From Clostridia bacterium (GTDB taxonomy: Bacteria > Bacillota > Clostridia > UMGS1840), in the NCBI GenBank assembly GCA_045541975.1, contig JAZQKB010000041.1:40-64039 (forward strand): a stretch of 64,000 bases of DNA, in the 5' to 3' direction. The notes below the pieces were generated by a model. That model did no database searches and was not told the origin of the DNA. It saw nothing but the letters and a program-made list of their open reading frames with translations. Shown here piece by piece: positions 441 through 64,000 of the stretch. A program made the translations under genes and the position numbers. Positions within the stretch are counted from its first letter, which is position 1. Each line of letters starts with the position of its first letter.

Positions 441-517
<77 letters not shown>

Positions 518-5891: not shown

Positions 5892-6635
5892 TTATCGTAA
5901 TTTGACGGGTACTTGTTCCCCCGTTAAGCGTTTTGCGGAATTTGTAATTTCTTTCACGCATTTTTTATGTTTATCATCCAGAATCAACTTGCCCTGATTC
6001 TGGAAAGAAATCATGCTGTCTTCATACCGCCAGATGCCAAGCAGCGGCGTTCCTAAACGGTTTAGAATTTCATCCACGTTGGGCATCAGTTTTTTACGCA
6101 CCAATTTGGGATTGAATTTATTGATAATGACATAATTTTCTTGGATATTTACTTTGTTTGCTGCCGAAAGCACGCGGTCTGCATCCCGCATGGATGCAAA
6201 GTCGGGCGTTACCACCGTTACGGTGGCATCTGCTTTGGAAATACAATTTTTAAAGCCGGTTTCAATACCTGCGGGGGCATCCAGCAGAATATAGTCAAAC
6301 TCTTTGGCTGCCTCGGTCAGCATTTGGGAAAATTTTTCTTCCACCAGATCTTCTTTTTCAATGGTCTGGGATGCAGGCAGAAAATACAGTTCTCCGTATT
6401 GTTCAAAATGGTAGCAAGCGTCTTTCAACGGGATTTTCCCTTCATACACATCGGTCACGTCATACACGATCACGCTTTGCACCCCAAACACAATATCTAA
6501 GTTGCGAAGGCCGATATCCGTGTCAATAATGAGCACTTTTTTGCCCAGTTTTGCCAAAGCTGCAGACAAATTTGCAGCAACCGTGGTTTTTCCCACGCCG
6601 CCTTTTCCTGATGCAATTGCAACAATTTTGCCCAT
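5892..6635 (-). CDS. minD: Septum site-determining ATPase MinD
   Basis: Deviant Walker [32 protein letters not shown]. Start at ATG 6635 after a GGAGG RBS. Confidence 0.9.
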
Positions 6636-6734
6636 TGGATAATCGCCTCCTTTTTGGTTTGGTTTGCCTTCGGATATTATCATATCACAAATCATATGAA
6701 AAGTCAATTTTCTTTTGAATTTCTCCTGGAAAAT

Positions 6735-7232
6735 TTATATGGATACCCTGTCATTTCCGGATTTTGTATTCTTATGCTTTTTGTTTTTTTTAGTAAGGAG
6801 CATCATCACCAGAATGGCGGTTGCCACGCCGCAGGTGTCTAAAATCATATCGGTAACACGCATGGCTCTGCCGGCTCCTGTGCAGAATTGAATACATTCA
6901 TCTGCCACAGCCACCAAAGCACCGTACAACAGGGCAATCCATTTTTTTTGGATTTTCTGAACGTTTTGCAACAGATATTTACTTGCCTGATAGGATAATA
7001 CACCAAGCAGAAAAAATTCGCAGAAGTGAGCGGTTTTTCGGATGATTGTGTGCATCAGATCTGCCGGAAGATGAATGCCGGTTAATCCATAAAACCAGGT
7101 CAGAAGACTTTGCAACAACCCGCCGGACAAACCGACAGATACCGTTGCAGGTTGCATGGAAAAGGAAAAAATCACTGCTGTCCAAAGAAGGGTAAGCAGT
7201 GTGTATAAAACAGCTTTTTTCTGTAGCTTCAT
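6735..7232 (-). CDS. VanZ family membrane protein
   Basis: IFSFSMQ, IRKTAHFCEF, DECIQ, GR...DMILD motifs. Start at ATG 7232 after AGAGG. Confidence 0.85.
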   Translation of the reverse strand: MKLQKKAVLYTLLTLLWTAVIFSFSMQPATVSVGLSGGLLQSLLTWFYGLTGIHLPADLMHTIIRKTAHFCEFFLLGVLSYQASKYLLQNVQKIQKKWIALLYGALVAVADECIQFCTGAGRAMRVTDMILDTCGVATAILVMMLLTKKNKKHKNTKSGNDRVSI

Positions 7233-7248
7233 TGTGAAAAAACCTCTT

Positions 7249-7788
7249 TTATTCGTATACTGCACGGGCGCCGCCAATCAGTTTCGGACGGGTATGGGCA
7301 CAAAGAACAGTTGCCTGCCCGATGAGGGCGCTTTCCAATCTTACGGGAACAGCTACCTTTTTTAAATGCATACCAATGAGAGTACCGCCAATATCAATGC
7401 CCAAATCTGCACGGATGTTTTCCACCACCACGGGTTCAGAAAAATTTTGGTAGCAGGCAGTGGCAAAAGAACCGCCTGCTTTAGGTTTTGGAACCACCCA
7501 AACAGGCTCATATCCAAATAATTTTGCCGTTTTTTTCTCCATCACAAGGGCACGGTTTAAATGTTCGCAACACTGTGCCGCCAGATGGATTCCTTTTTTC
7601 TTTAACACGGGATAAAGGCCCAAAAATAACGCTTCTGCCGCTTCGTAGGCAGAGTTGGTGCCGATTTTATCCCCTAAGATTTCGGAAGTGGAACAACCGA
7701 TGACCAAAAGACTTCCTTCTTTGGCATCGGTCTTTTTTAGAAATTCTTTGATTAAAGCTTTGGCTTCGGTCTTGATATTTTCGTACAT
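7249..7788 (-). CDS. TIGR01440 / UPF0340 (YwlG-like) protein
   Basis: VIGCSTSEI, AAQCCEHLNRALV, KAGGSFAT, GIDIGGTLIGMHLK, RPKLIGGARA. Confidence 0.9.
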   Translation of the reverse strand: MYENIKTEAKALIKEFLKKTDAKEGSLLVIGCSTSEILGDKIGTNSAYEAAEALFLGLYPVLKKKGIHLAAQCCEHLNRALVMEKKTAKLFGYEPVWVVPKPKAGGSFATACYQNFSEPVVVENIRADLGIDIGGTLIGMHLKKVAVPVRLESALIGQATVLCAHTRPKLIGGARAVYE

Positions 7789-7809
7789 GGCAATTCTCCG
7801 TTTGTTTCT

Positions 7810-8286
7810 TTATTGGAGCACCGTTTCTTGAAAGAACCGGTTTTTCCGAAGAGCGGTGAATAAAGGCACGCCGATTGCAGTAACCACAACCAGTTCTCCC
7901 AGTGCCGCTGTTACAAAACTGTACCAAAACGGCATGTTCAGTAAGGAAAGCTCCCATGCCACAAACACCATGGAAATGGCAGGAAATAAAGATGCCACCC
8001 AAATGTTTTTAACAGCTCGCATTCCCACCACGGTAAACACAGTGGATGCCACCCCAAAGATCAAGTCCAATGCCCCTAAGGGACTGAACAGATTACTGAT
8101 GGCACAGCCTAAAATTAAGGCGTAGCAATAGTCCTTCTTAAAAAAGCAGAGCAGGGTTAATACTTCTGAAATGCGAAATTGCACCGCTCCGTAAGATAAG
8201 GGGGCAACTGCTAAGGTGAGCGCCACATATAGTGCGGCGGTGACTGAAATGCGCAAAAATGCGCGTAATGCGGATTGTTTCATCAT
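7810..8286 (-). CDS. queT: QueT family queuosine-precursor transporter
   Basis: AALYVALT..APLSYGAVQFRISEVLTLL motif and 5 TM segments. Start MM at 8286/8283 after AAGGGAG. Confidence 0.85.
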   Translation of the reverse strand: MMKQSALRAFLRISVTAALYVALTLAVAPLSYGAVQFRISEVLTLLCFFKKDYCYALILGCAISNLFSPLGALDLIFGVASTVFTVVGMRAVKNIWVASLFPAISMVFVAWELSLLNMPFWYSFVTAALGELVVVTAIGVPLFTALRKNRFFQETVLQ

Positions 8287-8291
8287 AAATT

Positions 8292-8350
8292 CTCCCTTGT
8301 TTTTTAGTGGAGGAAATCCTCCGAAGATGGTTAGCAAGAGCAACATCTTC
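8292..8350 (-). promoter_or_regulatory. preQ1-I-like riboswitch with an extra hairpin in L3
   Basis: Minus strand: P1 GAAGATG/CATCTTC; loop TTGCTCTTGCTAAC ending in the ligand-position C; inserted hairpin GGAGG-ATTT-CCTCC; A-rich ACTAAAAAACAAGGGAG whose CAAGGG can pair with loop CTCTTG and overlaps the SD. Lies upstream of queT. Confidence 0.7.
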
Positions 8351-8359
8351 TTATCAAAA

Positions 8360-8388
8360 AGTATACCATATGGGGAGTTTTTTGTCAA
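8360..8388 (-). promoter_or_regulatory. sigmaA promoter of queT
   Basis: TTGACA-17 bp-TATACT. Confidence 0.85.
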
Positions 8389-8411
8389 TTCATTTCCCCT
8401 GATTTTTCGGG

Positions 8412-8444
8412 AAAAGAAAAGGGGAGTGTTTTGCTACGCTCCCC
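8412..8444 (-). terminator. Rho-independent terminator after spoIIID
   Basis: GGGGAGCG-TAGCAAAA-CACTCCCC followed by TTTTCTTTT; the stop codon lies in the loop. Confidence 0.75.
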
Positions 8445-8694
8445 GTTCGGCATATTTCTGTTTGGTGGCAAGACCGCCTCTGATATGCCGTTCTGCTTTA
8501 TTCTTGTTTAAAACTTCCCGCACCGCATCATAACGGTCAGGATCTAAAAATCTCAGACGCACCGCCACATCTTTATGTACCGTGGACTTGGAAATACCGA
8601 AATATTTAGCGGTTTTACGCACAGTGGTGCGGTTTTCGATAATGTAATCCGCAAAGAGAATTACTCGCTTATCAATATCGTAGCAAAAGTCCAA
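8434..8694 (-). CDS. spoIIID: Sporulation transcriptional regulator SpoIIID
   Basis: YIIENRTTVRKTAKYFGISKSTVHKDV...NKAERHIRGG.AT. Likely TTG start at 8694 after GAGGTG. Confidence 0.95.
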   Translation of the reverse strand: MDFCYDIDKRVILFADYIIENRTTVRKTAKYFGISKSTVHKDVAVRLRFLDPDRYDAVREVLNKNKAERHIRGGLATKQKYAERGA

Positions 8695-8758
8695 AAAAAT
8701 CACCTCTCAGATTTGTATCAGTTTTGGGTTGATACAATATATGAGAGGTGTTTTTGTT

Positions 8759-10354
8759 TTATTCCGAAGGTTTTGGAAAGCGGATGATAACTCGGGTATA
8801 GCTGTTTTTTTCGCTTTCAAAACGGATGGAGCTTTCTTCTCCGAAAAAGAGTTTCATTCGTTTTAAGGAGTTGGAAATGCCAATATGTTTCTGCTCCTGA
8901 GTTCCTTCGTTTAACACGGCAAGACGTTCGGGAGTCATACCGTAACCGTTATCGTAAATTTCCGAGAGAATATAGCCGTTTTCTTCCCGCATGGAAATCT
9001 GAATCAAACAGTCTTTTCTGGCACCGGAAAGTCCATGCACCACGCAGTTTTCCACAAAGGTATGGAAGAACTGGGGTGGAATGGGAAGTGTCATCAGCTG
9101 TGGCTCAATTTTTGTTTCCAGCGGATATTTCTTTTCGTGGGAAAGTTCGTTAATAAACAGATATTTGCGAATAGTTTCCATTTCATCTGCTACAGAAATA
9201 TATTTTCGGTCCTTTTTTAAAATTTCCCGATAATACAGCGCCATATTGTCTACTAGATTCATAATTTTTTGGTTCTGAATCCGATATGCATCCAAACGGA
9301 TGGAGGCAAGAGAATTATAAAGCATATGAGGGTCCAACTGCATAGAAAGTCGTTCCATTTCCAGTTGTCTGTTTTCCAGTTCTGCAGCTTGGATTGCATC
9401 GTGATATGCCTTTAATTCCAGGGAAAGCTTATGCAGGGTTTGTTTAATGGTATTCAATTCCTGTAAATCGTACTCGGTGCGAAAAAATTCACTGTCATAA
9501 AGCAAATCTTCGCCGTCCAGATTTCCCATGAACCGATAAATTTCCCCTAAGGTTTTTCGTGCGGTGTGACGGGTAATCCAGAGAATCAAAGCAATCAACA
9601 CCATCAGCATAATAAAACCTGAAATAATAATTTCCGCACATCGTTGGTATAGCTCACCCTTGGGGATTTTCATCATACAAGAGAGACTGTCGTTTACGGA
9701 CAGTGAGATATAGTTTTCGGAATCCTGCACTCTGGGGTCATTGGAAAACACAATTTCCACGGGGAATCCCAACGACTCGGAATGCAAAATCTGAATCTGA
9801 TAGCGAAGGATACTGTCCGGGTTTCTCGGCAGACGGCGGTACATTATAATGCCTGTCATTTTTTCGCCGGAATACTTCATAGACTTATCAAACACAATAT
9901 CCGTTTTTTTGGACTCAAATGCTTCCATAATTTTGTTGTAATCATGTAAACGGGAAACATGGGAATATAGGTTGGATTCTTGTATGGAGCGGTTGGTTGT
10001 GTAAATCATAGGGGCATTTTGATAAATGGTTGCAGACATCAAAATTTCCTTAGAATAGTCCAGCATTTCCAGCATTTCATCGGTGGAATAGTTTTCCTTT
10101 TTTAACGCATTGCTGATGTAGGAAGACTGCACAATATGCTCCGAGTGAATCATCGCCTGATTCAGGGTTTCCTCTACAGTATCCACATACATTGAAAAGT
10201 CGCTTTTTCGCTCTGAAAGACCGAACTGATAGGCGTTTAGGGTGGCGAAGCAAATAGTGTAGGTCCAAACAAGCAACACAAAAAAACCGATAACGCGGAT
10301 GTTACCGTGTAAAATCTGTTCCAGTAAACTTTTGCGCATCGGTTTTTTCATCAA
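8759..10354 (-). CDS. YesM/LytS-type sensor histidine kinase
   Basis: Two TM helices; QLDPHMLYNSL H-box; FVENCVVHG N-box; DNGYG and HIGISN G-boxes. Confidence 0.92.
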   Translation of the reverse strand: MMKKPMRKSLLEQILHGNIRVIGFFVLLVWTYTICFATLNAYQFGLSERKSDFSMYVDTVEETLNQAMIHSEHIVQSSYISNALKKENYSTDEMLEMLDYSKEILMSATIYQNAPMIYTTNRSIQESNLYSHVSRLHDYNKIMEAFESKKTDIVFDKSMKYSGEKMTGIIMYRRLPRNPDSILRYQIQILHSESLGFPVEIVFSNDPRVQDSENYISLSVNDSLSCMMKIPKGELYQRCAEIIISGFIMLMVLIALILWITRHTARKTLGEIYRFMGNLDGEDLLYDSEFFRTEYDLQELNTIKQTLHKLSLELKAYHDAIQAAELENRQLEMERLSMQLDPHMLYNSLASIRLDAYRIQNQKIMNLVDNMALYYREILKKDRKYISVADEMETIRKYLFINELSHEKKYPLETKIEPQLMTLPIPPQFFHTFVENCVVHGLSGARKDCLIQISMREENGYILSEIYDNGYGMTPERLAVLNEGTQEQKHIGISNSLKRMKLFFGEESSIRFESEKNSYTRVIIRFPKPSE

Positions 10355-54582: not shown

Positions 54583-55296
54583 ATGAGATCTTATATTATT
54601 TGCCATATGGTAACATCCATCGACGGCAAAGTGACCGGTGACTTTTTGTCCCGTCCCGAATGTGAACCGGCAACAGATGTTTACTATGAATTAAATCGAA
54701 ACTTCAACAAAAACGGTGCCAACGGATTCCTTTGCGGTCGTGTAACCATGGAGGGAAGCTTTACCGGTGGCTGGTATCCCGACTTGGAAACATACGAACC
54801 TCTAAAGAATCAGGAAGATTTTATTCCCGAAAATTTATCGGGATTTTATGCCATCAGCTTTGATCCTAAGGGAAAACTGGGTTGGAAGGAAGCTAGGATT
54901 ATCGACGAAGACCCGGGCTATGGCGGTGCACAGATTGTGGAAGTATTAACCCGTCAGGTTGACAGACGGTATCTTTCTTATTTAAAGGCGTTGGGGATTC
55001 CCTACATTTTCGCCGGAGATATTGAAATTGATGTTTCCATAGCTTTACAAAAGCTGAAAACCCTGATGGGGATTGAAACAATCTTATTAGAGGGCGGAAG
55101 CATTGTGAACGGTTATTTTAACCGTTGTGATGTGATTGACGAAGTAAGTCTTGTGGTGGCACCTATAGTGGCAGAAGGGGAAGACAAACCATTATTTATG
55201 GATAGTGTGTTATCTCAGTTTCAATTAAAAGAATTAAAGCAATACGGTGATGTTGTGTGGCTTCATTATAAAAAGGGGAGCAAACATGTTAAATAA
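54583..55296 (+). CDS. RibD C-terminal / DHFR-fold reductase family protein
   Basis: ICHMVTSIDGKVTG, ILLEGGSIVNG, DEVSLVVAP. Confidence 0.88.
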   Translation: MRSYIICHMVTSIDGKVTGDFLSRPECEPATDVYYELNRNFNKNGANGFLCGRVTMEGSFTGGWYPDLETYEPLKNQEDFIPENLSGFYAISFDPKGKLGWKEARIIDEDPGYGGAQIVEVLTRQVDRRYLSYLKALGIPYIFAGDIEIDVSIALQKLKTLMGIETILLEGGSIVNGYFNRCDVIDEVSLVVAPIVAEGEDKPLFMDSVLSQFQLKELKQYGDVVWLHYKKGSKHVK

Positions 55297-55642
55297 ATTA
55301 TTAAAAAGTGTGTTGGATCAGGACACGGCTCCCGTGGTGGTGTGCGATACCAATCATACTATTGTCTATATGAATCCCTGCGCCGTTAAGCGCTATCATC
55401 GGGACTTGACGGGAAATTGTATCAAAGACTGTCATCCTCCCAAGGCAAATGAACTGATTGATAAGGTGGTCGCCTGGTTTTTGGCAGACAAAGACCACAA
55501 CATCATGTATACTTATCATAACGAAAAGGAAAACAAGGATGTGTATATGGTGGCGCTTCGTGACGAGGACGGAACCTTGATCGGTTACTACGAAAAGCAC
55601 GAATACCGTAACCGTGAAACAAAACCCTTATATCATTTTTAG
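55286..55642 (+). CDS. Small stand-alone PAS-domain protein
   Basis: APVVVCDTNHTIVYMN, IKDCHP, ALRDEDGTLIGYYEKHEY. Confidence 0.75.
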   Translation: MLNKLLKSVLDQDTAPVVVCDTNHTIVYMNPCAVKRYHRDLTGNCIKDCHPPKANELIDKVVAWFLADKDHNIMYTYHNEKENKDVYMVALRDEDGTLIGYYEKHEYRNRETKPLYHF

Positions 55643-55697
55643 CGGTATCTGTGAAAGATAAAATCTATGCTGAATTGCCAATGCCGAGGAACAAGAA

Positions 55698-56018
55698 ATG
55701 AAATGCTGTAACCATGACGAATTTGAACTGATCAAAGAATACGACCCAAAGCCTAAAAATCCTGACGGCAGTATCCGTTGGTTTTTATACCGTTGGGATG
55801 ACGGCAAAGACGGCTACCGAAAGCTCATCCGTTGCAAAAGCTGTGGTCGGTATTTTTTGGTGCAATGCTATCGGCTGAATAAGTTTTCAGAAGATGATGA
55901 CAAGTTACATGAGGATTGGTATGCGGTGGAAAACGAACAGCAGGCAGATTATTTAAATCGCACCTACACAGGACCCGAACTGGAAAGAATGTTGAAAAAC
56001 TGGAGGGATAAATATTGA
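55698..56018 (+). CDS. Hypothetical protein (possible metal-binding CC/CxxC)
   Basis: RBS, 106 codons, stop overlaps the next start; RCKSCG motif. Confidence 0.6.
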   Translation: MKCCNHDEFELIKEYDPKPKNPDGSIRWFLYRWDDGKDGYRKLIRCKSCGRYFLVQCYRLNKFSEDDDKLHEDWYAVENEQQADYLNRTYTGPELERMLKNWRDKY

Positions 56019-56362
56019 GAACAAGGCAAGAAGTGATAGATTTTTGTCTGTCGCTTTTGGAAGCTTACGAAGATTATCCCTTCCACGATTTTAACTGGAC
56101 GGTGATGCGCCATAAAGGAAACCAAAAAATGTTTGCCGCTATCTGTGAACGGCTGGGAAATATCTGGATTAATGTAAAATGTGATCCTAACCTGACATAT
56201 CTGTGGCGAAATACCTATCAGTCCGTGGTGCCTGCCTATCATATGAATAAATTTCATTGGAATTCCATTATTCTAGATGGCTCTATTCCCGCGGAAGAAA
56301 TCAAAAATATGATTTGGGACAGTTACGAGCTAACCAAACCTAAAAAGAGAGGGAAAAAGTGA
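56015..56362 (+). CDS. MmcQ/YjbR family DNA-binding protein
   Basis: EDYPF, KMFA, NVKCDP, PAYHMNKFHWNSI. Confidence 0.92.
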   Translation: MRTRQEVIDFCLSLLEAYEDYPFHDFNWTVMRHKGNQKMFAAICERLGNIWINVKCDPNLTYLWRNTYQSVVPAYHMNKFHWNSIILDGSIPAEEIKNMIWDSYELTKPKKRGKK

Positions 56363-56772
56363 TTATGAAAAAAAAATACTGTGTCCTGACAGTTTTTCTT
56401 TGTATATTCTTAACCGCTTGCGGAAATTCTACAAGTAATATGACAAAAGAACAGGGAGAACAAACGATGTACGAACAGATTACACCTCAGCAGGCAAAAG
56501 AACTGATGGAGTCTTATCCTGACGCCGTCATTTTAGATGTGAGAGAACAGGACGAATATGATAGCGGTCATATCAAAAATGCCATTTTAATTCCTCATAC
56601 CGAAATTAAGACGCAGGCAAATGAAAAACTTCCCGACAAAAATCAGCTGATTTTAGTGTATTGCCGTTCGGGACGCCGCAGTAAAATTGCCTCCGAAAGC
56701 CTTGTGAATTTAGGTTATACCAATGTGAAAGAGTTTGGCGGCATCAACGATTGGCCATACGGTGTGGAATAG
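56359..56772 (+). CDS. Rhodanese-like domain lipoprotein
   Basis: Lipobox LTAC; ILDVRE..EYDSGHI; VYCRSGRRS; FGGINDWPY. Confidence 0.92.
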   Translation: MIMKKKYCVLTVFLCIFLTACGNSTSNMTKEQGEQTMYEQITPQQAKELMESYPDAVILDVREQDEYDSGHIKNAILIPHTEIKTQANEKLPDKNQLILVYCRSGRRSKIASESLVNLGYTNVKEFGGINDWPYGVE

Positions 56773-56792
56773 AAGAAATATTTCCGATTGGC

Positions 56793-56821
56793 TTGACAAT
56801 CCTCCAAAAATTTGGTAAACT
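56793..56821 (+). promoter_or_regulatory. sigmaA promoter of the (broken) tRNA-Ser locus
   Basis: TTGACA-17 bp-TAAACT, 16 nt upstream of the tRNA 5' half. Confidence 0.7.
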
Positions 56822-56837
56822 ATGAAGGATTCAATCG

Positions 56838-56877
56838 GGAGTGGTATCGAAGTGGTCATAACGGACATGACTCGAAA
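56838..56877 (+). pseudogene. 5' half of a tRNA-Ser(CGA), interrupted at the anticodon loop
   Basis: GGAGTGG TA TCG AAGTGGTCATAA CGG A CATGA CTCGAAA, after which the expected 3' anticodon strand (TCATG) is replaced by AACCTTAAG... Confidence 0.8.
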
Positions 56878-56959
56878 AACCTTAAGTTTTTTGGAACCTC
56901 ACACCCCCAATCCCTTGATATTACTGACTTTTTTGAAAATTTAATATTGCTAATTTTGC

Positions 56960-56982
56960 AGTTCCCAAAAGGAGTTCCCAAA
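56960..56982 (+). repeat. Direct repeat AGTTCCCAAA x2, candidate integrase arm-type sites
   Basis: Copies at 56960-69 and 56973-82, about 85 bp inside the break point. Confidence 0.55.
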
Positions 56983-57021
56983 GATTTTCACACCTTTTGC
57001 AGGGCTGAAAAATATAAATTT

Positions 57022-57113
57022 GGAGATGTACCCAAGTGGTTGAAGGGTCCGGATTCGAAATCCGGTAGGTCGGTTTTGCCGGCGCTAGGGTTCAAATCCC
57101 TACATCTCCGCCA
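57022..57113 (+). tRNA. tRNA-Ser(CGA), intact
   Basis: Acceptor GGAGATG/CATCTCC, discriminator G, CCA; anticodon stem CCGGA/TCCGG with loop TTCGAAA; long variable arm GTCGG-TTTTG-CCGGC; T-arm TAGGG-TTCAAAT-CCCTA. Confidence 0.95.
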
Positions 57114-57114
57114 T

Positions 57115-57149
57115 AGCAAGGTTTTGCATAGTCAAAACCTTGCTTTTTT
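57115..57149 (+). terminator. Terminator after tRNA-Ser
   Basis: AGCAAGGTTTTG-CATAGT-CAAAACCTTGCT followed by T5. Confidence 0.9.
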
Positions 57150-57211
57150 ATTTCACCTACTGTTTATTAAATGATACCATATTTGAGTTTTAAAAACAAA
57201 AAATATAGAAC

Positions 57212-57240
57212 AAAGCAGCAGAATTAAATTCTGCTGCTTT
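57212..57240 (-). terminator. Terminator ending the island cargo transcript
   Basis: AAAGCAGCAGAAT-TAA-ATTCTGCTGCTTT, 10 nt past the TIGR04141 stop. Confidence 0.75.
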
Positions 57241-57249
57241 TGGCGATTT

Positions 57250-58845
57250 TTATAATTTTTTTATTAACGCAACCGAACATTTAAAATGCATTCTATCCAA
57301 CTCTTGAGCTGTAAGCATTAAATTTACTTTGCTAAAAAAAGGAAGTTTATCGACTAATGTTGATTCTTTATCATCAATTATTGCATATATAACTTCATAT
57401 TCATTTGAGTTAGGTTTGTCTGAATAATTGAAAACCTCTTCTCCAAATTCGTTTTTTGCTATTTCGGATACTTGTTTTCTAAATTCCTCATCACTTATAA
57501 AGCACTCTGCCGAAATTTTTCCTTGTGCAAATAAATGACTCAGCTGAGCTGATTGTCCTTTGTTTTTTACATGAATAAACTTTTTACCTTTATCAAAAAT
57601 ATCACAAGCTTCTATTTTTTTAGGTCCACCAGCAACGGAAACCAATTTTTGATCCATTAAGCAGTAATTTGGATTTCCATTAGCGACCAATTCATTATAA
57701 CCCTCTTCGTATTCATCCGAAGGACATTCAGGCAAATGAATATCCGAGATTTTAATTTGTGTTCTTATATAATTGTTTACCCTTTCAAAAAAAGAGGTTT
57801 CAACACGATACCATGAACCTGAACACAAAATATAATTTTCTCCTTCATATTCCGTTTGAAATACAAGTGCCGAGTATATACTACAAATAGTAAAAGGTGT
57901 ACCATCAGAATTCATTGCATATAATTTATCTCGTCTCAGCTTCTGATACACATTCGTATTCGGTTTTATTTTGTCTATATATTCTGAAATATTTAGGTTA
58001 AGATTGTAATTATCTTCATCAGATGTCTTTTTTCCCATGCCGGAATAGCAAAAACCTATAATTCTATCCCAATCAGTTGTCTCTGGTGGAGCAATATGTA
58101 AGTGTTCAGTTCTTTTTTCTTCAATAGCTGTAGATAATTCGAAATCTAAAGCTTCTGACAATACCGAATCCCTAACTTCTGCAATATTATCAACCCATTC
58201 AAATCCAATATTCTTATATCTCTCATCATTATATGCAGAATAATACAAATTCAGTTTTTCTTTAAGCTCTGTTAAATCCATAAAAACTGAAACCACTAAA
58301 GAGTCTTTCCCGCTTATATGATTACCATATGTTTCACTATACGGTTCTCCTGTTATGCCTTTCATTATGTCATTTGTTACATTTAATCCGAATTCTTCTT
58401 GAGAAGTACTATAACTCGCTTGTCTTTGAGTAGTCACGACCATATCTTCTATTGTAGCAGCATTAACACTCCTCATTTTGTTAGGATTTATTGTATTCAA
58501 GGCAACTTTTAATCCAAAGTTACGCTCTATATGCTCTTCCTTCAAAAATGAACGACCGTAACCAAATACCACTGCCATTATGCGGTTTTGAATTTTGGCT
58601 AATAGTATAGCTTTATTAGAAGCGTTATCTGAAATATCTATTGAATCTTTTGCCCAAGAATCTAAATAAGGCTTCCATTTAGGGACCTTTCTATTACTGT
58701 CACAGTAATAAATTTCACCAGCCAATGCAAATTCTGATTTTAATTTCGACGAAGAAAGTGTATGCGGTGATTTTAAACAGTCCTTAAAATCGTCAATATA
58801 GTCTTTGATTAAAAATATGGTTAAATTTATAACTTGTTTATCCAT
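57250..58845 (-). CDS. TIGR04141 / DUF6119 'sporadically distributed' protein
   Basis: LTIFLIK, AVVFGYGR..L, FGLKVALN, QRQAS, IEACD..HVK..S.QLSHLFAQG..SA. Confidence 0.8.
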   Translation of the reverse strand: MDKQVINLTIFLIKDYIDDFKDCLKSPHTLSSSKLKSEFALAGEIYYCDSNRKVPKWKPYLDSWAKDSIDISDNASNKAILLAKIQNRIMAVVFGYGRSFLKEEHIERNFGLKVALNTINPNKMRSVNAATIEDMVVTTQRQASYSTSQEEFGLNVTNDIMKGITGEPYSETYGNHISGKDSLVVSVFMDLTELKEKLNLYYSAYNDERYKNIGFEWVDNIAEVRDSVLSEALDFELSTAIEEKRTEHLHIAPPETTDWDRIIGFCYSGMGKKTSDEDNYNLNLNISEYIDKIKPNTNVYQKLRRDKLYAMNSDGTPFTICSIYSALVFQTEYEGENYILCSGSWYRVETSFFERVNNYIRTQIKISDIHLPECPSDEYEEGYNELVANGNPNYCLMDQKLVSVAGGPKKIEACDIFDKGKKFIHVKNKGQSAQLSHLFAQGKISAECFISDEEFRKQVSEIAKNEFGEEVFNYSDKPNSNEYEVIYAIIDDKESTLVDKLPFFSKVNLMLTAQELDRMHFKCSVALIKKL

Positions 58846-58925
58846 TTTTCCTCCTAACCATTTATCTCTTGAAATAAGATTTGTTAAGTTATTCTTTCGT
58901 GCTATCCCGCTATATTTTCGTCTTA

Positions 58926-59426
58926 TTAGTATGATTCATACAATTCGTCAAATAAACTAAAAGCTACAATCTTAGCAGTATTAAAATCTAAAATCTTCTT
59001 GCCCTGATAATCCCATATAAATTGACCTTTGAAAGCAACGCCCCAACCCGAGCCAAACTTACTCCTCATAATGGTTATGTATTCTCCTTTATACTTCAAT
59101 GTATAATTGCCATTTTCAGGCTTTAGAATCCACTTTTGTTTCATAAAATTTTTTCTTCGATTGGTACGATTTCTTAAGCCTTTTTCAATCTCAGTTGGAG
59201 AAACATACCCCTCTATCATTTTGGATGCACAATCGCAGCCAACATGTATTTCCCCTACATAGTCAGGATGCTTTAGTATGTGCACATATCTTATTTTTTC
59301 TTGGTCGCACATCTCACAACTTTCGTAAGGGATAGGGTCCCCTTCACATACATCTTCACCTAAATCTATTACTCCAACGTATTCCCAACCTTTATGAGGG
59401 ATACCTTCTTTGCTCCATCTCGACAT
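58926..59426 (-). CDS. Uncharacterised protein with a putative Zn-binding motif
   Basis: CEMC...IRYVHILKH...VGCDCA; RBS GGTGAG. Confidence 0.7.
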   Translation of the reverse strand: MSRWSKEGIPHKGWEYVGVIDLGEDVCEGDPIPYESCEMCDQEKIRYVHILKHPDYVGEIHVGCDCASKMIEGYVSPTEIEKGLRNRTNRRKNFMKQKWILKPENGNYTLKYKGEYITIMRSKFGSGWGVAFKGQFIWDYQGKKILDFNTAKIVAFSLFDELYESY

Positions 59427-59441
59427 ATGCTCACCACCAAA

Positions 59442-59792
59442 TTATATTTTTTCGCTCCATTCACTTTCTTTAAATCCAACTAAAACAACATCTTCGCCAA
59501 TTACAAGTGGACGTTTTACGAGCATTCCGTCTGTTGAGAGCAACTTTAACTGTTCTTCTTCAGACATAGCAGGAAGCTTGTCCTTCAGTTCCATTGACTT
59601 ATATAAAAGCCCGGATGTGTTAAAGAATTTCTTTAACGGAAGTCCGCTCATTTTATGCCATTCTGATAACTCTTCAAAACACGGATTATCTTCTTTTATA
59701 TCACGCAGATCATATTCTATTTTATTGTCATCTAGCCATTTCTTTGCCTTTTGACAGGTTGTACATTTTGGATAACAAATAAATTTAAGCAT
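59442..59792 (-). CDS. ArsC/Spx family (arsenate reductase-like) protein
   Basis: YPKCTTCQKA, FFNTSG, MLVKRP. Confidence 0.92.
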   Translation of the reverse strand: MLKFICYPKCTTCQKAKKWLDDNKIEYDLRDIKEDNPCFEELSEWHKMSGLPLKKFFNTSGLLYKSMELKDKLPAMSEEEQLKLLSTDGMLVKRPLVIGEDVVLVGFKESEWSEKI

Positions 59793-59850: not shown

Positions 59851-60435
59851 TTAATTACCAAACTTTGTTCCCAATTCAATTATAGTTTTCATACTTTCTG
59901 GGTTTTTTATGAGTTCGGGTAGAATTTGCGCTAATAATTGCTGATTAGATTGTTCTTGGGTAGAAATGTTTTGCTGATCCTTTTGAGTTTCAAGTGAATT
60001 AGCTACACTTTGAAGCTGCATCTTTCTCAACATTTCTTCCTCGTGTATTTTTTCAGATAAGCCATTAGGACAATATGCTTGTTTAATATCATCCCAATGA
60101 ATATTTTTTAAATTCAAAGCTTTTGCTATTTCTTCAAGAAGTTTTAAGTGCTTGTCGGCCGTATTGGGATTCATTTCTGGACTTTTAGCAGCTTCGTTTA
60201 AGAAGTCATTATATGCACGTCTAACATTATCATCTTTATAAAATATTACATCTATTGAATTTAAGGCATGGACACTGGGTTCAGCTACAATCCAATATCT
60301 GTATGACATTAGCGTTTCAAAAATTTTCATCTTACTATTACGTATAGCAACTTTACCTTGCCACCATATAGTAATTAAAGTCGCCAACAAACCTGATATC
60401 AACGCTGTGGCAACCAACATAATTATTTCACTCAT
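59851..60435 (-). CDS. DUF6680-like protein with N-terminal TM helix
   Basis: IFETLMSYR, VHALNSIDVIFY, LLEEIAKAL. Confidence 0.65.
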   Translation of the reverse strand: MSEIIMLVATALISGLLATLITIWWQGKVAIRNSKMKIFETLMSYRYWIVAEPSVHALNSIDVIFYKDDNVRRAYNDFLNEAAKSPEMNPNTADKHLKLLEEIAKALNLKNIHWDDIKQAYCPNGLSEKIHEEEMLRKMQLQSVANSLETQKDQQNISTQEQSNQQLLAQILPELIKNPESMKTIIELGTKFGN

Positions 60436-60505
60436 TTAAAATTCCTCCATTCATCGTTTGTAACTTATATTTATAAGTAGTAAATTTTTTTCACAGCAAC
60501 ACAAA

Positions 60506-61246
60506 TTATTTGCCATTATATAATTCGTCATAGAAAGATAATTTAGATTTGTATTCTGATTTCATATTGCTATCAAAATAAACAACTTGAATTCTCTTTT
60601 TATCCCCATCTAGCAGTTCGAATGTAGGTACTTTTGAAAAGTTGAACCTAGTTTTATCAGGATTTTTTCCAGCCTTTAAAACTCGTTCTTTATAGTGCGG
60701 CTCTAACACACCATTGGGCATACACATAATTGAAATAGTCAAAATATCGAGATTTTCCTTTTCGTACAAAATTGTAACGAAATATGAAAGACAAATCTTT
60801 TCATCATCTTTACCCTCGTTATAAACATACGGCAAAGACGGAATATATGGTCTAAGACCTCCATTTACAGCAATATTTCCTTTATAACTATTTTGATTTT
60901 TGCCAACAAATATACTTGTTTTGTAATCGCCGATATTATCTGTCTGCACTGTCTTTAAATCAATATGTATATATGCATCCTCTACTTCAAAAAATAAATC
61001 TGCTCCAACAGGAGATGAATTGGGTTGACCTATTCCTTTGCCGTTTAGAAGTGCATATACAATTCGTTCAGCACCTACAGCAAAATCAGATATCCCAGAT
61101 GCGTAATATCCATACCAATCATCTTTGATTTTCTCCTTAGTCTTAAATCCAAGCATCATTTCATCTTCTGCAAACTTTAAAAAATGATAGTATTTCATTA
61201 AATACTTATATTCCAATTCTTCAACTTGTTTCATTGTGTATTTCAT
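60506..61246 (-). CDS. Type II restriction endonuclease, BglI/SfiI-like PD-(D/E)xK fold
   Basis: VGAERIV, PVGAD..HIDLKTV, GKNQNS, PSLPYVY, CMPNG, AGKN are collinear with motifs I recall from BglI. Starts 1 nt after the MTase stop. Confidence 0.7.
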   Translation of the reverse strand: MKYTMKQVEELEYKYLMKYYHFLKFAEDEMMLGFKTKEKIKDDWYGYYASGISDFAVGAERIVYALLNGKGIGQPNSSPVGADLFFEVEDAYIHIDLKTVQTDNIGDYKTSIFVGKNQNSYKGNIAVNGGLRPYIPSLPYVYNEGKDDEKICLSYFVTILYEKENLDILTISIMCMPNGVLEPHYKERVLKAGKNPDKTRFNFSKVPTFELLDGDKKRIQVVYFDSNMKSEYKSKLSFYDELYNGK

Positions 61247-61247
61247 A

Positions 61248-62783
61248 TTACTTCTTCTCCTTCTTTAGTATCTCAGCCTTAATCCCATCAGCAATTTTTT
61301 CTGCCAATTTCACAGGAACAGCATTGCCAATTTGTGTGTACATTTTGTTTAAGCTTCCTTCAAACTCATAAGAAACAGGGAAACATTGAAGTATCGCACA
61401 TTCTCTAGCACTAAGTCTCCTCTTTTTGTTTACATGGATTTCAGGACTTGTTGCTGTTATAGTGTCACTTGGTCTGTCCCAGTTTGTGATTCTCAAAGAT
61501 TGTTCAAATTTAATCTCTTTTTCAACTAGTGTAGTGACAGCTTTATCATATCTATCATCAAATCCCAAAATTTTCTTTAATTCCCACCAATCTTCAGGAC
61601 TAGGAATGCTTCCTGAATTATTATCCTTTCTAAACCAATGCCCAGCTGTGTACGAGTAACCAAAATGTTCATCTACCTTTTTGGTAGTCCAACCTGCCTT
61701 ATCTCTCCAGTATCTTAAATAATCACAAATATCATGTTGGTTGACTTCATATTTTCTGCCCCAAAATGTATCTGCAACATTTTCAGATGCAATATGGTTT
61801 TTTATGACAATACTTTCAAAATTCTCAGGAATGCCTAATATATCATAGAACTCTTCTGCGTCTTCTATGTTTGTTTTCTCAATATGCTTTTCTATATCCT
61901 TTTTAGTGATAACATGAGATTTGTTAGAAATTTTAACATTGGAAAGAAAACCAATTGCTTGTTCAGTAGTTAATGCCGGTTTTAAATCCTTGTTCGGATT
62001 CTCTTCTGTATCAAGATAATGAGTTTTTGTCGGATATGGGTTTTCTGCACCTATACAATTTCCGATAATAACAACACGTTCTCTTGCTTGCGGAACACCA
62101 TATTCGGCAGCATTTAAAATACGTGCTTCGACTTTGTATCCCAATTGCTCAAAGTCTTTTTTTATCATCTCAAAAACTTTTCCTTTTTCTATAGATAAAA
62201 TGCCCTTTACATTTTCAGCAACAAAGAATTTAGGAGTTTTATCTTTTATTATTCTAAGCATTTCCCTATATAAGAAATTACGCTTATCTTCCATCGATCT
62301 TTTTGTATTTGCCACAGAAAAACCTTGACAGGGGAAACCACCAATTATGACATCGGCACCATTAGGAATATCGTCACTAGAAATCTTGGTAATATCCCCA
62401 TATATCATATGCTTACCTATATTCTTTCTATAGGAATCAACCGCTTCTTTGAAGAAATCATTTGCCCAAATAATTTCAAATCCTGATTTGATAAACCCCA
62501 AATCCATTCCACCTGCTCCAGAAAAAAGCGATACAACTTTCAATTTATCAAGGGAATTGACTACTTCGTACTCTTCGTTTTCATCCTTCACTAGTTCAAC
62601 GATATCTCCAATATCACAATCAAGCACTTGACATATTTTCATCAAAACATCAGGACTTAGCATTTCTTCTTTCCCAATTTTTGCTAAAGTACTTGAGCTG
62701 ATTTTGGCGCGTTCCCTTAATTCAGTTTTAGTCATATGACTGTCAATAAGGCGTTTTAACAACTTGTTATAATTAGCTTTCAC
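61248..62783 (-). CDS. m5C DNA methyltransferase with N-terminal XRE/Cro HTH and a second HTH-like insert in the variable region
   Basis: Motifs I SLFSGAGG, IV GGFPCQGFS, VI ENVKG, VIII YGVPQARER, IX RRLSARE, X QIGNAVP; N-terminal YNKLLKRLIDSHMTKTELRERAKISSSTLAKI. GTG start. Confidence 0.93.
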   Translation of the reverse strand: MKANYNKLLKRLIDSHMTKTELRERAKISSSTLAKIGKEEMLSPDVLMKICQVLDCDIGDIVELVKDENEEYEVVNSLDKLKVVSLFSGAGGMDLGFIKSGFEIIWANDFFKEAVDSYRKNIGKHMIYGDITKISSDDIPNGADVIIGGFPCQGFSVANTKRSMEDKRNFLYREMLRIIKDKTPKFFVAENVKGILSIEKGKVFEMIKKDFEQLGYKVEARILNAAEYGVPQARERVVIIGNCIGAENPYPTKTHYLDTEENPNKDLKPALTTEQAIGFLSNVKISNKSHVITKKDIEKHIEKTNIEDAEEFYDILGIPENFESIVIKNHIASENVADTFWGRKYEVNQHDICDYLRYWRDKAGWTTKKVDEHFGYSYTAGHWFRKDNNSGSIPSPEDWWELKKILGFDDRYDKAVTTLVEKEIKFEQSLRITNWDRPSDTITATSPEIHVNKKRRLSARECAILQCFPVSYEFEGSLNKMYTQIGNAVPVKLAEKIADGIKAEILKKEKK

Positions 62784-62930: not shown

Positions 62931-63467
62931 TCATCTTCTGACGATTGCTTGGTTGAGTATCGGTTTCAATCTGCTATCCTTGGGGTAGTTATATATAAAA
63001 TCATCTGTAAGCATAAATTCGAGGAGCCATTGTTTTGGCACAATGCTTACGTTGCTGTTGAGTTTCACTACCTTAAGTTTTCCTGCTGATGTCCATTTGC
63101 AAACACAACCTCTTGCACGGCCTGTTATCTTTGCTATATCATCATAACTCAGAGCATCGGGATATTCGCTCATTCTCTCTTTAAACAATTCTTTTAATTT
63201 TTTCTTGTTAAACTTTATTCTCTCTACTTCTGCTTGCGGTTTTCTTTTGAACACACCAGGCGGAATATCGGGGGATATTCCGCTTTTGATGTACGCCACT
63301 ACATCTTTGGTGCGTATCTTATACCTCCATGTGACTGAGTCCCGAATTTCGCACGGGATGTATCCGTTTTGCAGTAGATATGCCAATCGCCGCTTTGACA
63401 TATGCAATTCTATGCGGACATTGTCCATGCTTATAAATTCTCCGTATGTATGAGCGTTAATCTTCAT
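62931..63467 (-). CDS. Tandem excisionase-like (HTH_17/MerR-type) DNA-binding protein
   Basis: Two repeats: EFISMDNVRIELHMSKRRLAYLLQNGYI..RYKIRTKDV and DALSYDDIAKITG..V.KW..GKL..IVPKQWL. Overlaps the integrase stop. Confidence 0.7.
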   Translation of the reverse strand: MKINAHTYGEFISMDNVRIELHMSKRRLAYLLQNGYIPCEIRDSVTWRYKIRTKDVVAYIKSGISPDIPPGVFKRKPQAEVERIKFNKKKLKELFKERMSEYPDALSYDDIAKITGRARGCVCKWTSAGKLKVVKLNSNVSIVPKQWLLEFMLTDDFIYNYPKDSRLKPILNQAIVRR

Positions 63468-63999
63468 TTCCAATCACCTTCGCCATCATTTCTGCCGACT
63501 GCAGTTTGGTATCGTATTCTAAGTGGGCATAGATGTTTGCCGTTGTTGAGAAGTCTGAGTGCCCGAGCCAGTCTTGTATTTGCTTCATAGATATGCCGTT
63601 TGCCAAGAGAAGCGAAGCACATGTGTGTCTTAGGTCGTGGAATCTAATCCTTTTTAAGCCATGCTCTTCCAACAGATGCCTGAAGTGATCTGTAACGAAG
63701 TTCGGCTTTATTATTCCGCCGAGGGGGTCCACACACACATAATCCTTATACTCTCTTGAATAAGAGCTTCCGAACAATTTCATATATTCCTCTTGCTTTG
63801 CCTTGTGTTCAAGAAGAATTTTCTCTACCGCAGGTATGAGAGGCATCGTTCTTCGGCTTGACTTATTTTTCATTGTGTCATATCCCACAATCTGAGTACC
63901 GCCATCTTCGTTTTCCTCTTGCATTACCTTATGCCTTATATTAATTCGCTTTGCATCGAAGTCTATGTTGCTCCACTTAACACCGATTACCTCGCTCCG
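63457..63999 (-). CDS. Tyrosine recombinase/integrase, C-terminal catalytic domain (5'-partial)
   Basis: Frame is open to the window edge: RSEVIGVKWSNIDF (box I R), RFHDLRHTCAS (HxxR), LGHSDFSTTANIYAH (H/Y). Confidence 0.95.
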   Translation of the reverse strand, partial: RSEVIGVKWSNIDFDAKRINIRHKVMQEENEDGGTQIVGYDTMKNKSSRRTMPLIPAVEKILLEHKAKQEEYMKLFGSSYSREYKDYVCVDPLGGIIKPNFVTDHFRHLLEEHGLKRIRFHDLRHTCASLLLANGISMKQIQDWLGHSDFSTTANIYAHLEYDTKLQSAEMMAKVIGNED

Positions 64000-64000
64000 T

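Follow-up and report, generated by a model that had tools for sequence, protein, structure and literature searches.

Integrative elements that target transfer RNA (tRNA) genes classically carry the 3' part of the tRNA gene in attP, and the gene is rebuilt at attL. In the sublocation classes attributed to Williams (2002), anticodon-loop integrases are said to cross over at the loop, at the position of a 7-bp overlap. Here we analyse a stretch of 64,000 nt of a Clostridia bacterium contig (JAZQKB010000041.1; hereafter the window), in which the anticodon loop of a resident tRNA-Ser(CGA) gene is the site of a break, with a complete tRNA-Ser(CGA) gene shortly after it. We consider it probable that a site-specific island was inserted into the resident gene by a tyrosine integrase and brought the replacement tRNA gene with it. 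The crossover position is the same as in the classical elements, but attL consists of a dead 5' half.

The closest described system is the tRNA-dependent lysogeny of actinobacteriophages, among them Fionnbharth, LeBron, Gaia and others (Guerrero-Bustamante and Hatfull, mBio 2024, PMC10865867). For integration these phages use a tyrosine integrase and, within a tRNA gene, a core of 8-17 bp; the gene is not rebuilt, and viable lysogens require a phage-encoded tRNA with the same anticodon, as was shown experimentally (PMC10865867). The window island is like them in having a tyrosine integrase, an attB inside a tRNA gene and an element tRNA with the same anticodon. At attL no functional tRNA is rebuilt in five out of five loci, and attR lies beyond the sequence seen. 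The phages target tRNA-Lys, tRNA-Ile2 and tRNA-Leu, whereas the target here is tRNA-Ser(CGA). The arrangement differs as well: in Fionnbharth the tRNA gene is separated from attP-int by kilobases and overlaps a protein gene, and a promoter of its own has been demonstrated, whereas the island tRNA gene lies 144 nt from the core, apparently behind a captured promoter, and 5' halves are stacked among its relatives. The requirement for the tRNA has been demonstrated in the actinobacteriophages, while the window island is known from sequence alone. It would work like the phage system, but it is not a prophage, and its host belongs to the gut Clostridia and not to the Actinobacteria.

Two further systems share parts of this arrangement. 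Integrative and conjugative elements (ICEs) of Pasteurellaceae (ICEPmu1/ICEMh1 type) disrupt a tRNA-Leu gene, which is replaced by an intact copy at the ICE's end, and a 13-nt remnant of the anticodon loop is found at the att sites; this is a descriptive statement (PMC6028734). These ICEs are, like the window island, non-phage elements with a disrupted tRNA gene and a replacement copy, but they are Gram-negative, conjugative, ∼50-90 kb long and equipped with an unrelated XerD-type integrase, and neither stacking nor promoter capture is described for them (PMC6028734). Prophage Lj965 of Lactobacillus johnsonii (Ventura et al. 2003 and 2004), which PMC10865867 cites as an early hint of the strategy in Firmicutes, does not rebuild the tRNA gene at its junction and carries a cognate tRNA; it shares a Firmicutes host with the window island but is a prophage. 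In reverse-orientation integration into tRNA genes (Zhao and Williams 2002, as cited in PMC6563490), the element contributes a promoter and a 5' part that rebuild the gene at the other junction. This type resembles the window in having an orphan 5' tRNA fragment with a promoter at one end of the element, and differs from it in that the window has a whole tRNA gene supplied beside the orphan fragment.

The strategy of breaking a tRNA gene and replacing it is thus already known. An earlier note on this DNA, which had proposed break-and-replace as the reading of the locus, assumed more novelty than there is, as the strategy has been shown in actinobacteriophages (PMC10865867) and noted for the Pasteurellaceae ICEs (PMC6028734). 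What is new is a non-phage island of gut Clostridia with tRNA-Ser(CGA) as its target, a tRNA gene embedded in the arm, near the crossover site and apparently behind the captured promoter, the serial stacking of 5' halves and two apparently exchanged alleles of the inner tRNA.

The classical outcome is also found in a related lineage. In L066, identical 56-nt 3' parts of tRNA-Ser(CGA), each starting from CTCGAAA, are located at 472-527 and 4098-4153 around a blaI/blaR1-like gene pair beside a rhodanese gene. This is a 3' duplication of the classical kind with the same crossover position, and the contig ends exactly at the repeat.

The broken tRNA-Ser(CGA) gene and its probable replacement

The promoter, the 5' half, the spacer with its repeats, the intact tRNA gene, its terminator and the conserved stretch behind it are all on the plus strand. 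After a rhodanese-family lipoprotein gene, which ends at 56772 (from a reading of 56400-57500), the strong promoter of the resident tRNA-Ser(CGA) gene is found at 56793..56821 (TTGACA-17-TAAACT, 10 out of 12 matches, with TG ahead of the -10 box). It is now directed into the island, and the same promoter is conserved before an intact tRNA gene in L002, an island-free relative described below. The promoter is followed by an orphan 5' half of the resident gene (56838..56877; GGAGTGGTATCGAAGTGGTCATAACGGACATGACTCGAAA). These 40 nt comprise the acceptor strand, the D arm, the 5' anticodon stem and the complete anticodon loop CTCGAAA (56871..56877), which is the presumed common core; they match the starts of intact tRNA-Ser(CGA) genes at 36 out of 40 positions (90%) in L002 and at 38 out of 40 (95%) in L083. 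The junction comes after 56877, where the bases past the loop (AACCTTAAG) are unable to pair with the CATGA stem, and neither ARAGORN nor Rfam called a tRNA at the orphan 5' half. The earlier note was right that the 5' half stops exactly after the anticodon loop (it ends with CTCGAAA, where homology to L002 also stops) and that the junction does not restore the target: there is no tRNA-Ser 3' fragment anywhere in the 64-kb window, and none after CTCGAAA in any of the five loci that have this junction.

A spacer, which forms the left arm of the island (56878..57021), separates the orphan half from an intact tRNA-Ser(CGA) gene of 92 nt (57022..57113; found by ARAGORN and scored by the Rfam tRNA model at 58.2 bits, with a gathering score of 29). 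This island-borne tRNA has a CCCA-type D arm and the anticodon loop TTCGAAA, and copies 100% identical to it are present in L101 and L113. Its acceptor, D and anticodon stems all differ from those of the broken gene, as the earlier note had said; the T stem, which the note also listed, has no counterpart to be compared with, as the window lacks the resident 3' half. An intrinsic terminator follows at 57115..57144 (also conserved in L101, L102 and L114), and then come ∼60 nt of conserved sequence (57145..57203), which mark the right edge of the segment that the window has in common with these three loci; the 90 nt after the tRNA, of which this stretch is a part, are 87-94% identical. The host promoter, tRNA-Ser 5' half, repeats, intact tRNA and terminator listed in the earlier note are thus all present, to within 1-2 nt of where it had placed them; it put the intact tRNA 145 bp inside the island end, and the spacer measures 144 nt.

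Within the spacer, two exact direct repeats (AGTTCCCAAA), which are invariant in all five loci, are located at 56960-56969 and 56973-56982, with a 13-nt spacing; GTTCCCAAA does not occur again in the 64-kb window. The AGTTCCCAAA pair may be arm-type integrase sites or a regulatory element. The scan turned up nothing like a terminator on the way from the resident promoter to the island tRNA, and inside the spacer it found no promoter that meets its criteria. The sole TATAAA box lies 3 nt before the tRNA and was rejected as a promoter of its own, being too near for a processable transcript. We also rule out a group I intron or a split tRNA, as a complete, non-chimeric tRNA is found downstream instead of a 3' half.

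There are two alleles of the inner tRNA. That of the window (57022-57113) has GGAGATG and a CCCA D arm, and the other, found at L102:3333-3423 and L114:301-391, has GGAGAAG and a TCGA D arm. The two alleles are just 68% identical to each other, yet their flanks are 88-94% identical; the inner tRNA seems to have been swapped like a cassette.

Empty site and recurrence of the junction

The island-free relative L002 is a Clostridia metagenome-assembled genome, found by scanning species-representative genomes with the rhodanese protein of the window. Its rhodanese protein is 84% identical to that of the window, and the DNA of the two is 86-91% identical over several kb leftward. In L002 the same promoter is followed by a single intact tRNA-Ser(CGA) gene, a terminator and a convergent GNAT gene, without any island, and the DNA homology with the window extends from the rhodanese gene across the promoter, enters the tRNA gene and ends at window position 56877, so that chance can be discounted. 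L002, with its single intact tRNA of the resident type, is an island-free relative without a tandem tRNA pair; such a pair was one of the findings that the earlier note had named as refuting its reading.

The junction itself recurs. We found L101 and L102, both on one 41.6-kb contig, by an exact search for the repeat pair in metagenomes of the Joint Genome Institute (JGI), and L113 and L114 by a protein-database search with a spurious 120-aa reading frame that spans the module. Together with the window these make five loci, and all five have the same layout of a 5' half, a spacer, a whole tRNA-Ser(CGA) gene and a terminator. The break comes directly after CTCGAAA, with the spacer joined to the loop, in the window, in L101, L102 and L114, and at the third 5' half of L113. 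To the left of the break the loci have little in common: the 60 nt upstream are 53-62% identical between loci in forced global alignments (i.e. they are unrelated), the upstream host genes vary (a rhodanese gene; RadC with a tRNA cluster; an amidohydrolase gene; a gene for a SASA-domain protein), and the 5' halves, 75-95% identical, come from different tRNAs. To the right, identities among the window, L101, L102 and L114 are 88-93% in the spacer and 82-94% in the 90 nt behind the tRNA; the spacer of L113 belongs to a divergent subfamily (∼64%) whose 3' half is conserved, with the repeats and roughly the last 50 nt before the tRNA retained. From these alignments, we read the sharp break in identity as a recombination junction at one fixed nucleotide, with the mobile segment to its right. 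The three bases ahead of the loop vary among the target tRNAs (..ATGA, ..TGCA, ..CGCA and ..CTGA), so recognition cannot depend on most of the anticodon-stem sequence. The retention of an intact tRNA in all five loci is suggestive of selection, though no proof of it.

Other arrangements were observed near these loci and elsewhere. In L101, 170-330 nt upstream of the 5' half, there are a third pair of arm-like repeats (ATTCCCAAAAAGTTCCCAAAGA) and a solitary CTCGAAA (L101:1276-1440, minus strand), and an Rfam scan upstream of this 5' half found nothing tRNA-like. Two spurious open reading frames on other contigs (P0274 and P0275) point to further layouts: in one, a TCGA-type 5' half ending in CTCGAAA is followed by an unrelated spacer of ∼150 nt and a CCCA-type tRNA; in the other, two tRNA-Ser(CGA)-like segments stand in tandem, the first of them apparently broken later in the molecule.

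A stack of 5' halves and its integrase

In L113 (9480-10285), three orphan tRNA-Ser(CGA) 5' halves, alternating between the TCGA and the CCCA type, precede one intact tRNA. The stack begins with a good promoter, a decayed 5' half of the TCGA type and a spacer of type 2; it continues with a CCCA-type 5' half and a different spacer, which has its own repeats and an extended -10 box, and then with a TCGA-type 5' half and once more a spacer of type 2; it ends with an intact CCCA-type tRNA, 100% identical to that of the window, and a terminator. Repeated (nested) break-and-replace integrations predict this order, and from its sequence the stack looks like a record of nested integrations at one locus. 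At the junction of the second 5' half (L113:9700-9760) the sequence reads GGATTCGAAATCA-CTCGAAATCTGTCG, i.e. two tandem loop-like cores, and the next spacer has its own GGAACATATAG repeats; the junction is probably that of a second family of elements, whose crossover is slightly shifted. In addition, the translation P0269 from another sample suggests that a window-type inner tRNA has itself been cut just past the loop.

The tRNA terminator of L113 is directly followed, on the opposite strand, by a gene for a tyrosine integrase of 419 aa, with domains PF14659, PF13102 and PF00589. This integrase is 49% identical to the integrase fragment encoded in the window (E 6e-57). The earlier note had asked whether the 57022 tRNA travels with the integrase clade; in L113 it does, as an integrase of that family comes right after the module. 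The match of the L113 integrase to the Tn1549 Int chains 6EMZ/6EN0 is weak (E ∼1e-7), and the N-terminus of the window's integrase lies outside the window. The window fragment comprises the C-terminal 180 aa (63457..64000, minus strand; the gene runs past the end of the window), matches PF00589 with an E-value of 9.6e-18, and has the box I Arg, HDLR (the HxxR motif) and the Tyr in IYAHL. The stop codon of this gene is overlapped by the start of a gene for a 178-aa protein with an HTH_17 (excisionase-like) domain (62931..63467, minus strand), whose copy in L095 is 92% identical.

The island does not look like a phage. No phage structural or lysis genes were found in the 7 kb of the island that are visible, and the viral contigs contained neither an exact match to the arm-repeat and island-tRNA patterns nor a relative of the integrase fragment. 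Matches in the phage and plasmid collections were to tRNA bodies only, not to the spacer or to island genes; the one phage match, MT838415, was discarded as merely an intact tRNA-Ser(CGA) on an unverified contig. A closer view of the element type comes from L095. Over the C-terminal 155 aa its integrase has 96% identity to that of the window, and an excisionase-like gene, a relaxase gene, a NikA-like gene and an AAA_25/DnaB-like gene are located upstream of it. There is no relaxase gene or oriT within the window. By comparison with L095, the window island probably runs 4-5 kb past the available sequence and may be an integrative mobilizable element.

At what may be its other end (L095:4874-5900), the L095 island borders on a GNAT gene with 92% identity to the one just downstream of the intact tRNA of L002; the host neighbours are just 70-78% identical, and four CGCTGCA repeats are located at the boundary. 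As this putative other end has different repeats (CGCTGCA ×4), we claim no role for the AGTTCCCAAA pair. As for other relatives of the integrase, the close ones P0002/L082 and P0005/L084 are truncated remnants with other cargo, and the P0021 loci (57% identity) have split integrases within Mob_Pre-type mobilizable elements. Integrases that are split through a frameshift or N-terminally truncated are frequent in this family and are found at L095:9282-10468, at L082:2040-2603 and in L085-L094; this fragmentation may be in part assembly breakage and in part real decay.

Proposed mechanism and what it would mean

The break-and-replace reading of the earlier note gains support from the empty site, from the recurrence of the module behind four other 5' halves, from the integrase of the same family in L113 and from the stack there; whichever of the note's refuting conditions could be checked turned out in its favour. 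We propose that the tyrosine integrase acts on a short core that attP would have in common with the anticodon loop, either CTCGAAA itself or several bases around it, and that the crossover would take place within the CTCGAAA loop or at its 3' edge. Because attP would have the core without an adjoining tRNA 3' half, the gene would not be rebuilt at attL, and a dead 5' half would remain. The island would supply instead its complete tRNA-Ser(CGA) gene, 144 nt inside its left end. As there is no intervening terminator and no convincing promoter of the tRNA's own, we infer that the replacement tRNA would be transcribed from the captured resident promoter; RNase P, by normal 5' processing, would then release it. 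Excision would restore the resident gene. At the far junction we would expect island DNA followed by CTCGAAA and then TCATG...CCACTCCGCCA with the terminator, without a preceding 5' half. The island is probably mobilizable, with restriction-modification genes and other cargo.

Because the replacement tRNA would be a target itself, later elements would break it in turn, and 5' halves would become stacked. A broader proposal, which we offer tentatively as the less likely of two outcomes, is that gut Clostridia harbour a non-phage island family that serially overwrites tRNA-Ser(CGA), each newcomer cutting the intact copy, whichever it is, at the anticodon loop and placing its own promoterless copy behind the captured promoter. 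If this is true, a replacement tRNA would be expressed only when integrated and switched off upon excision as the old gene returns, the stacked 5' halves would be a readable record of successive invasions, and the two alleles, with the C32/T32 difference in the loop, could reflect selected immunity to re-targeting or to anticodon nucleases.

The arrangement has practical consequences too. Island-mapping tools seek a duplicated tRNA 3' fragment, so islands with just a 7-nt core and an orphan 5' half will be missed or given wrong borders. If the proposed mechanism is confirmed, the break-and-complement strategy of phages would gain tRNA-Ser(CGA) as a new target and would extend to non-phage islands of the gut microbiota that carry defence genes or can be mobilized. 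A replacement gene 144 nt from the crossover, behind a captured promoter, suggests a simple route to dependence of the host, with tRNA expression tied to integration, and stacks such as that of L113 could serve as a natural record of repeated invasion at one locus. The integrase and its short attB could serve as an integration tool for Clostridia, as has been proposed for the mycobacterial systems.

Alternative explanations

Several observations weigh against integration of the whole island by its own integrase together with a needed replacement tRNA. The right junction, attR, is visible in no locus: the source contig, of 64,101 nt, stops ∼100 nt past the window, and the other loci end before the far end of such an element. 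The probable other end of L095 has neither a tRNA 3' half nor GTTCCCAAA repeats. The window contains only part of its integrase gene, at a distance of 6.3 kb from the junction, and many relatives of this integrase in the databases are truncated or frameshifted (fragments of 108-244 aa); some copies of the family are likely to be immobile remnants, and the window island may no longer be mobile. The two inner-tRNA alleles within conserved flanks are unexplained by the simple model. In addition, tRNA-Ser(CGA) may be dispensable where tRNA-Ser(UGA) reads UCG, in which case it would be unproven that compensation matters.

The strongest alternative, which we nevertheless consider unlikely, accepts the break and the replacement as real but does not take the integrase at 63.4 kb as the agent. 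The spacer, tRNA and terminator, perhaps with ArsC, would be a small non-autonomous cassette or an old remnant that was inserted by an integrase acting in trans, and the stretch from the DUF6119 gene to the integrase gene would be a separate, later island. This would fit the finding that the window, L102 and L114 have only ∼330 nt plus ArsC in common, their other cargo being different, and that the right flank of L102 (ArsC, a 207-aa protein and a SpoIIE-type phosphatase) is not mobile-looking; L095, in spite of its 96%-identical integrase, has no module within reach. The module and the integrase gene are, however, part of one continuous low-GC block in the window, an integrase of the same family directly follows the module tRNA in L113, and islands usually combine conserved ends with variable cargo.

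Reverse-orientation integration of the Zhao and Williams type is, in our judgement, decidedly improbable. The promoter and 5' part at the far end would here rebuild the resident tRNA at attR, the fragment at 56838 would be a displaced 5' copy and the tRNA at 57022 incidental cargo. The integrase gene at the far end does read away from that junction, in a mirror image of the usual order of tRNA and then integrase; attR of the window lies beyond the sequence seen, and there are documented, though rare, cases of integration at the 5' region of tRNA genes. But in L113 the intact inner tRNA has the integrase gene as its neighbour, and the 5' halves stand ∼150-170 nt apart, which is too little to hold whole elements. 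Furthermore, the intact tRNAs are non-chimeric, the 3' acceptor strand of each being complementary to the 5' end of the same tRNA but not to the orphan halves upstream, and an intact cognate tRNA at the same distance from the junction in five out of five loci would be odd for incidental cargo.

A native tandem pair, a duplication scar or an assembly chimera at repeated tRNA sequence can practically be dismissed: the window's contig does end inside the integrase gene, and tRNA repeats do interrupt short-read assemblies (L001 stops at 57147 and L066 at the loop), but L002 has a single intact tRNA at the locus, the junction was found, each time with other flanks, in five assemblies that stem from different projects, and the spacer is conserved where the flanks are not.

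Cargo and neighbouring genes

To the right, the G+C content (guanine plus cytosine) drops from 0.43-0.45 to 0.33-0.38 and stays low in one continuous block, and all genes of the window to the right of the island tRNA are on the minus strand. From left to right, these genes encode a DUF6119 protein (57250-58845), a 166-aa protein (58926-59426), a protein of the ArsC/glutaredoxin family (59442..59792; it adjoins the module in L102 and L114, with 85% aa identity), and then a DUF6680 protein, a 246-aa type II restriction-enzyme-like protein and a C5 cytosine methyltransferase fused to a helix-turn-helix (HTH) domain (all within 59851..62783), followed by the HTH_17 and integrase genes described above. 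The 246-aa protein and the methyltransferase (60506-62783) probably form a type II restriction-modification pair; PADLOC recognised this restriction-modification pair in the island cargo and nothing else.

L102 and L114 lack the 2.2-kb block with the DUF6119 and 166-aa genes (57204-59448) that separates ArsC from the module in the window. An exact-protein look-up with the DUF6119 protein gave only a 2.4-kb Logan contig (L001), which has this block with 99.7% identity and ends at the tRNA terminator (57147). The cargo beside the module in L114 consists of ArsC, GmrSD and a Dcm/EcoRII pair. Exact-protein look-ups with the rhodanese and HTH_17 proteins of the window (two start choices each) returned no match. 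Close to the left end of the window there is a tRNA-Pro(CGG) gene (441-517, minus strand).

Homologues of the ArsC protein (P0225, 89% identity) are located in another accessory-gene cluster, from which the module is absent. This cluster recurs in L103-L112 (at about 6100-8900), comprises genes for MGMT, YjbR, SIR2, rhodanese, ArsC and flavin reductase, and adjoins genes for a large serine recombinase, TnpV and RepA_N. Several genes of the cluster are shared by the part of the window at 55100-56772, i.e. by the side that we have called resident, which may itself be an older mobile region.

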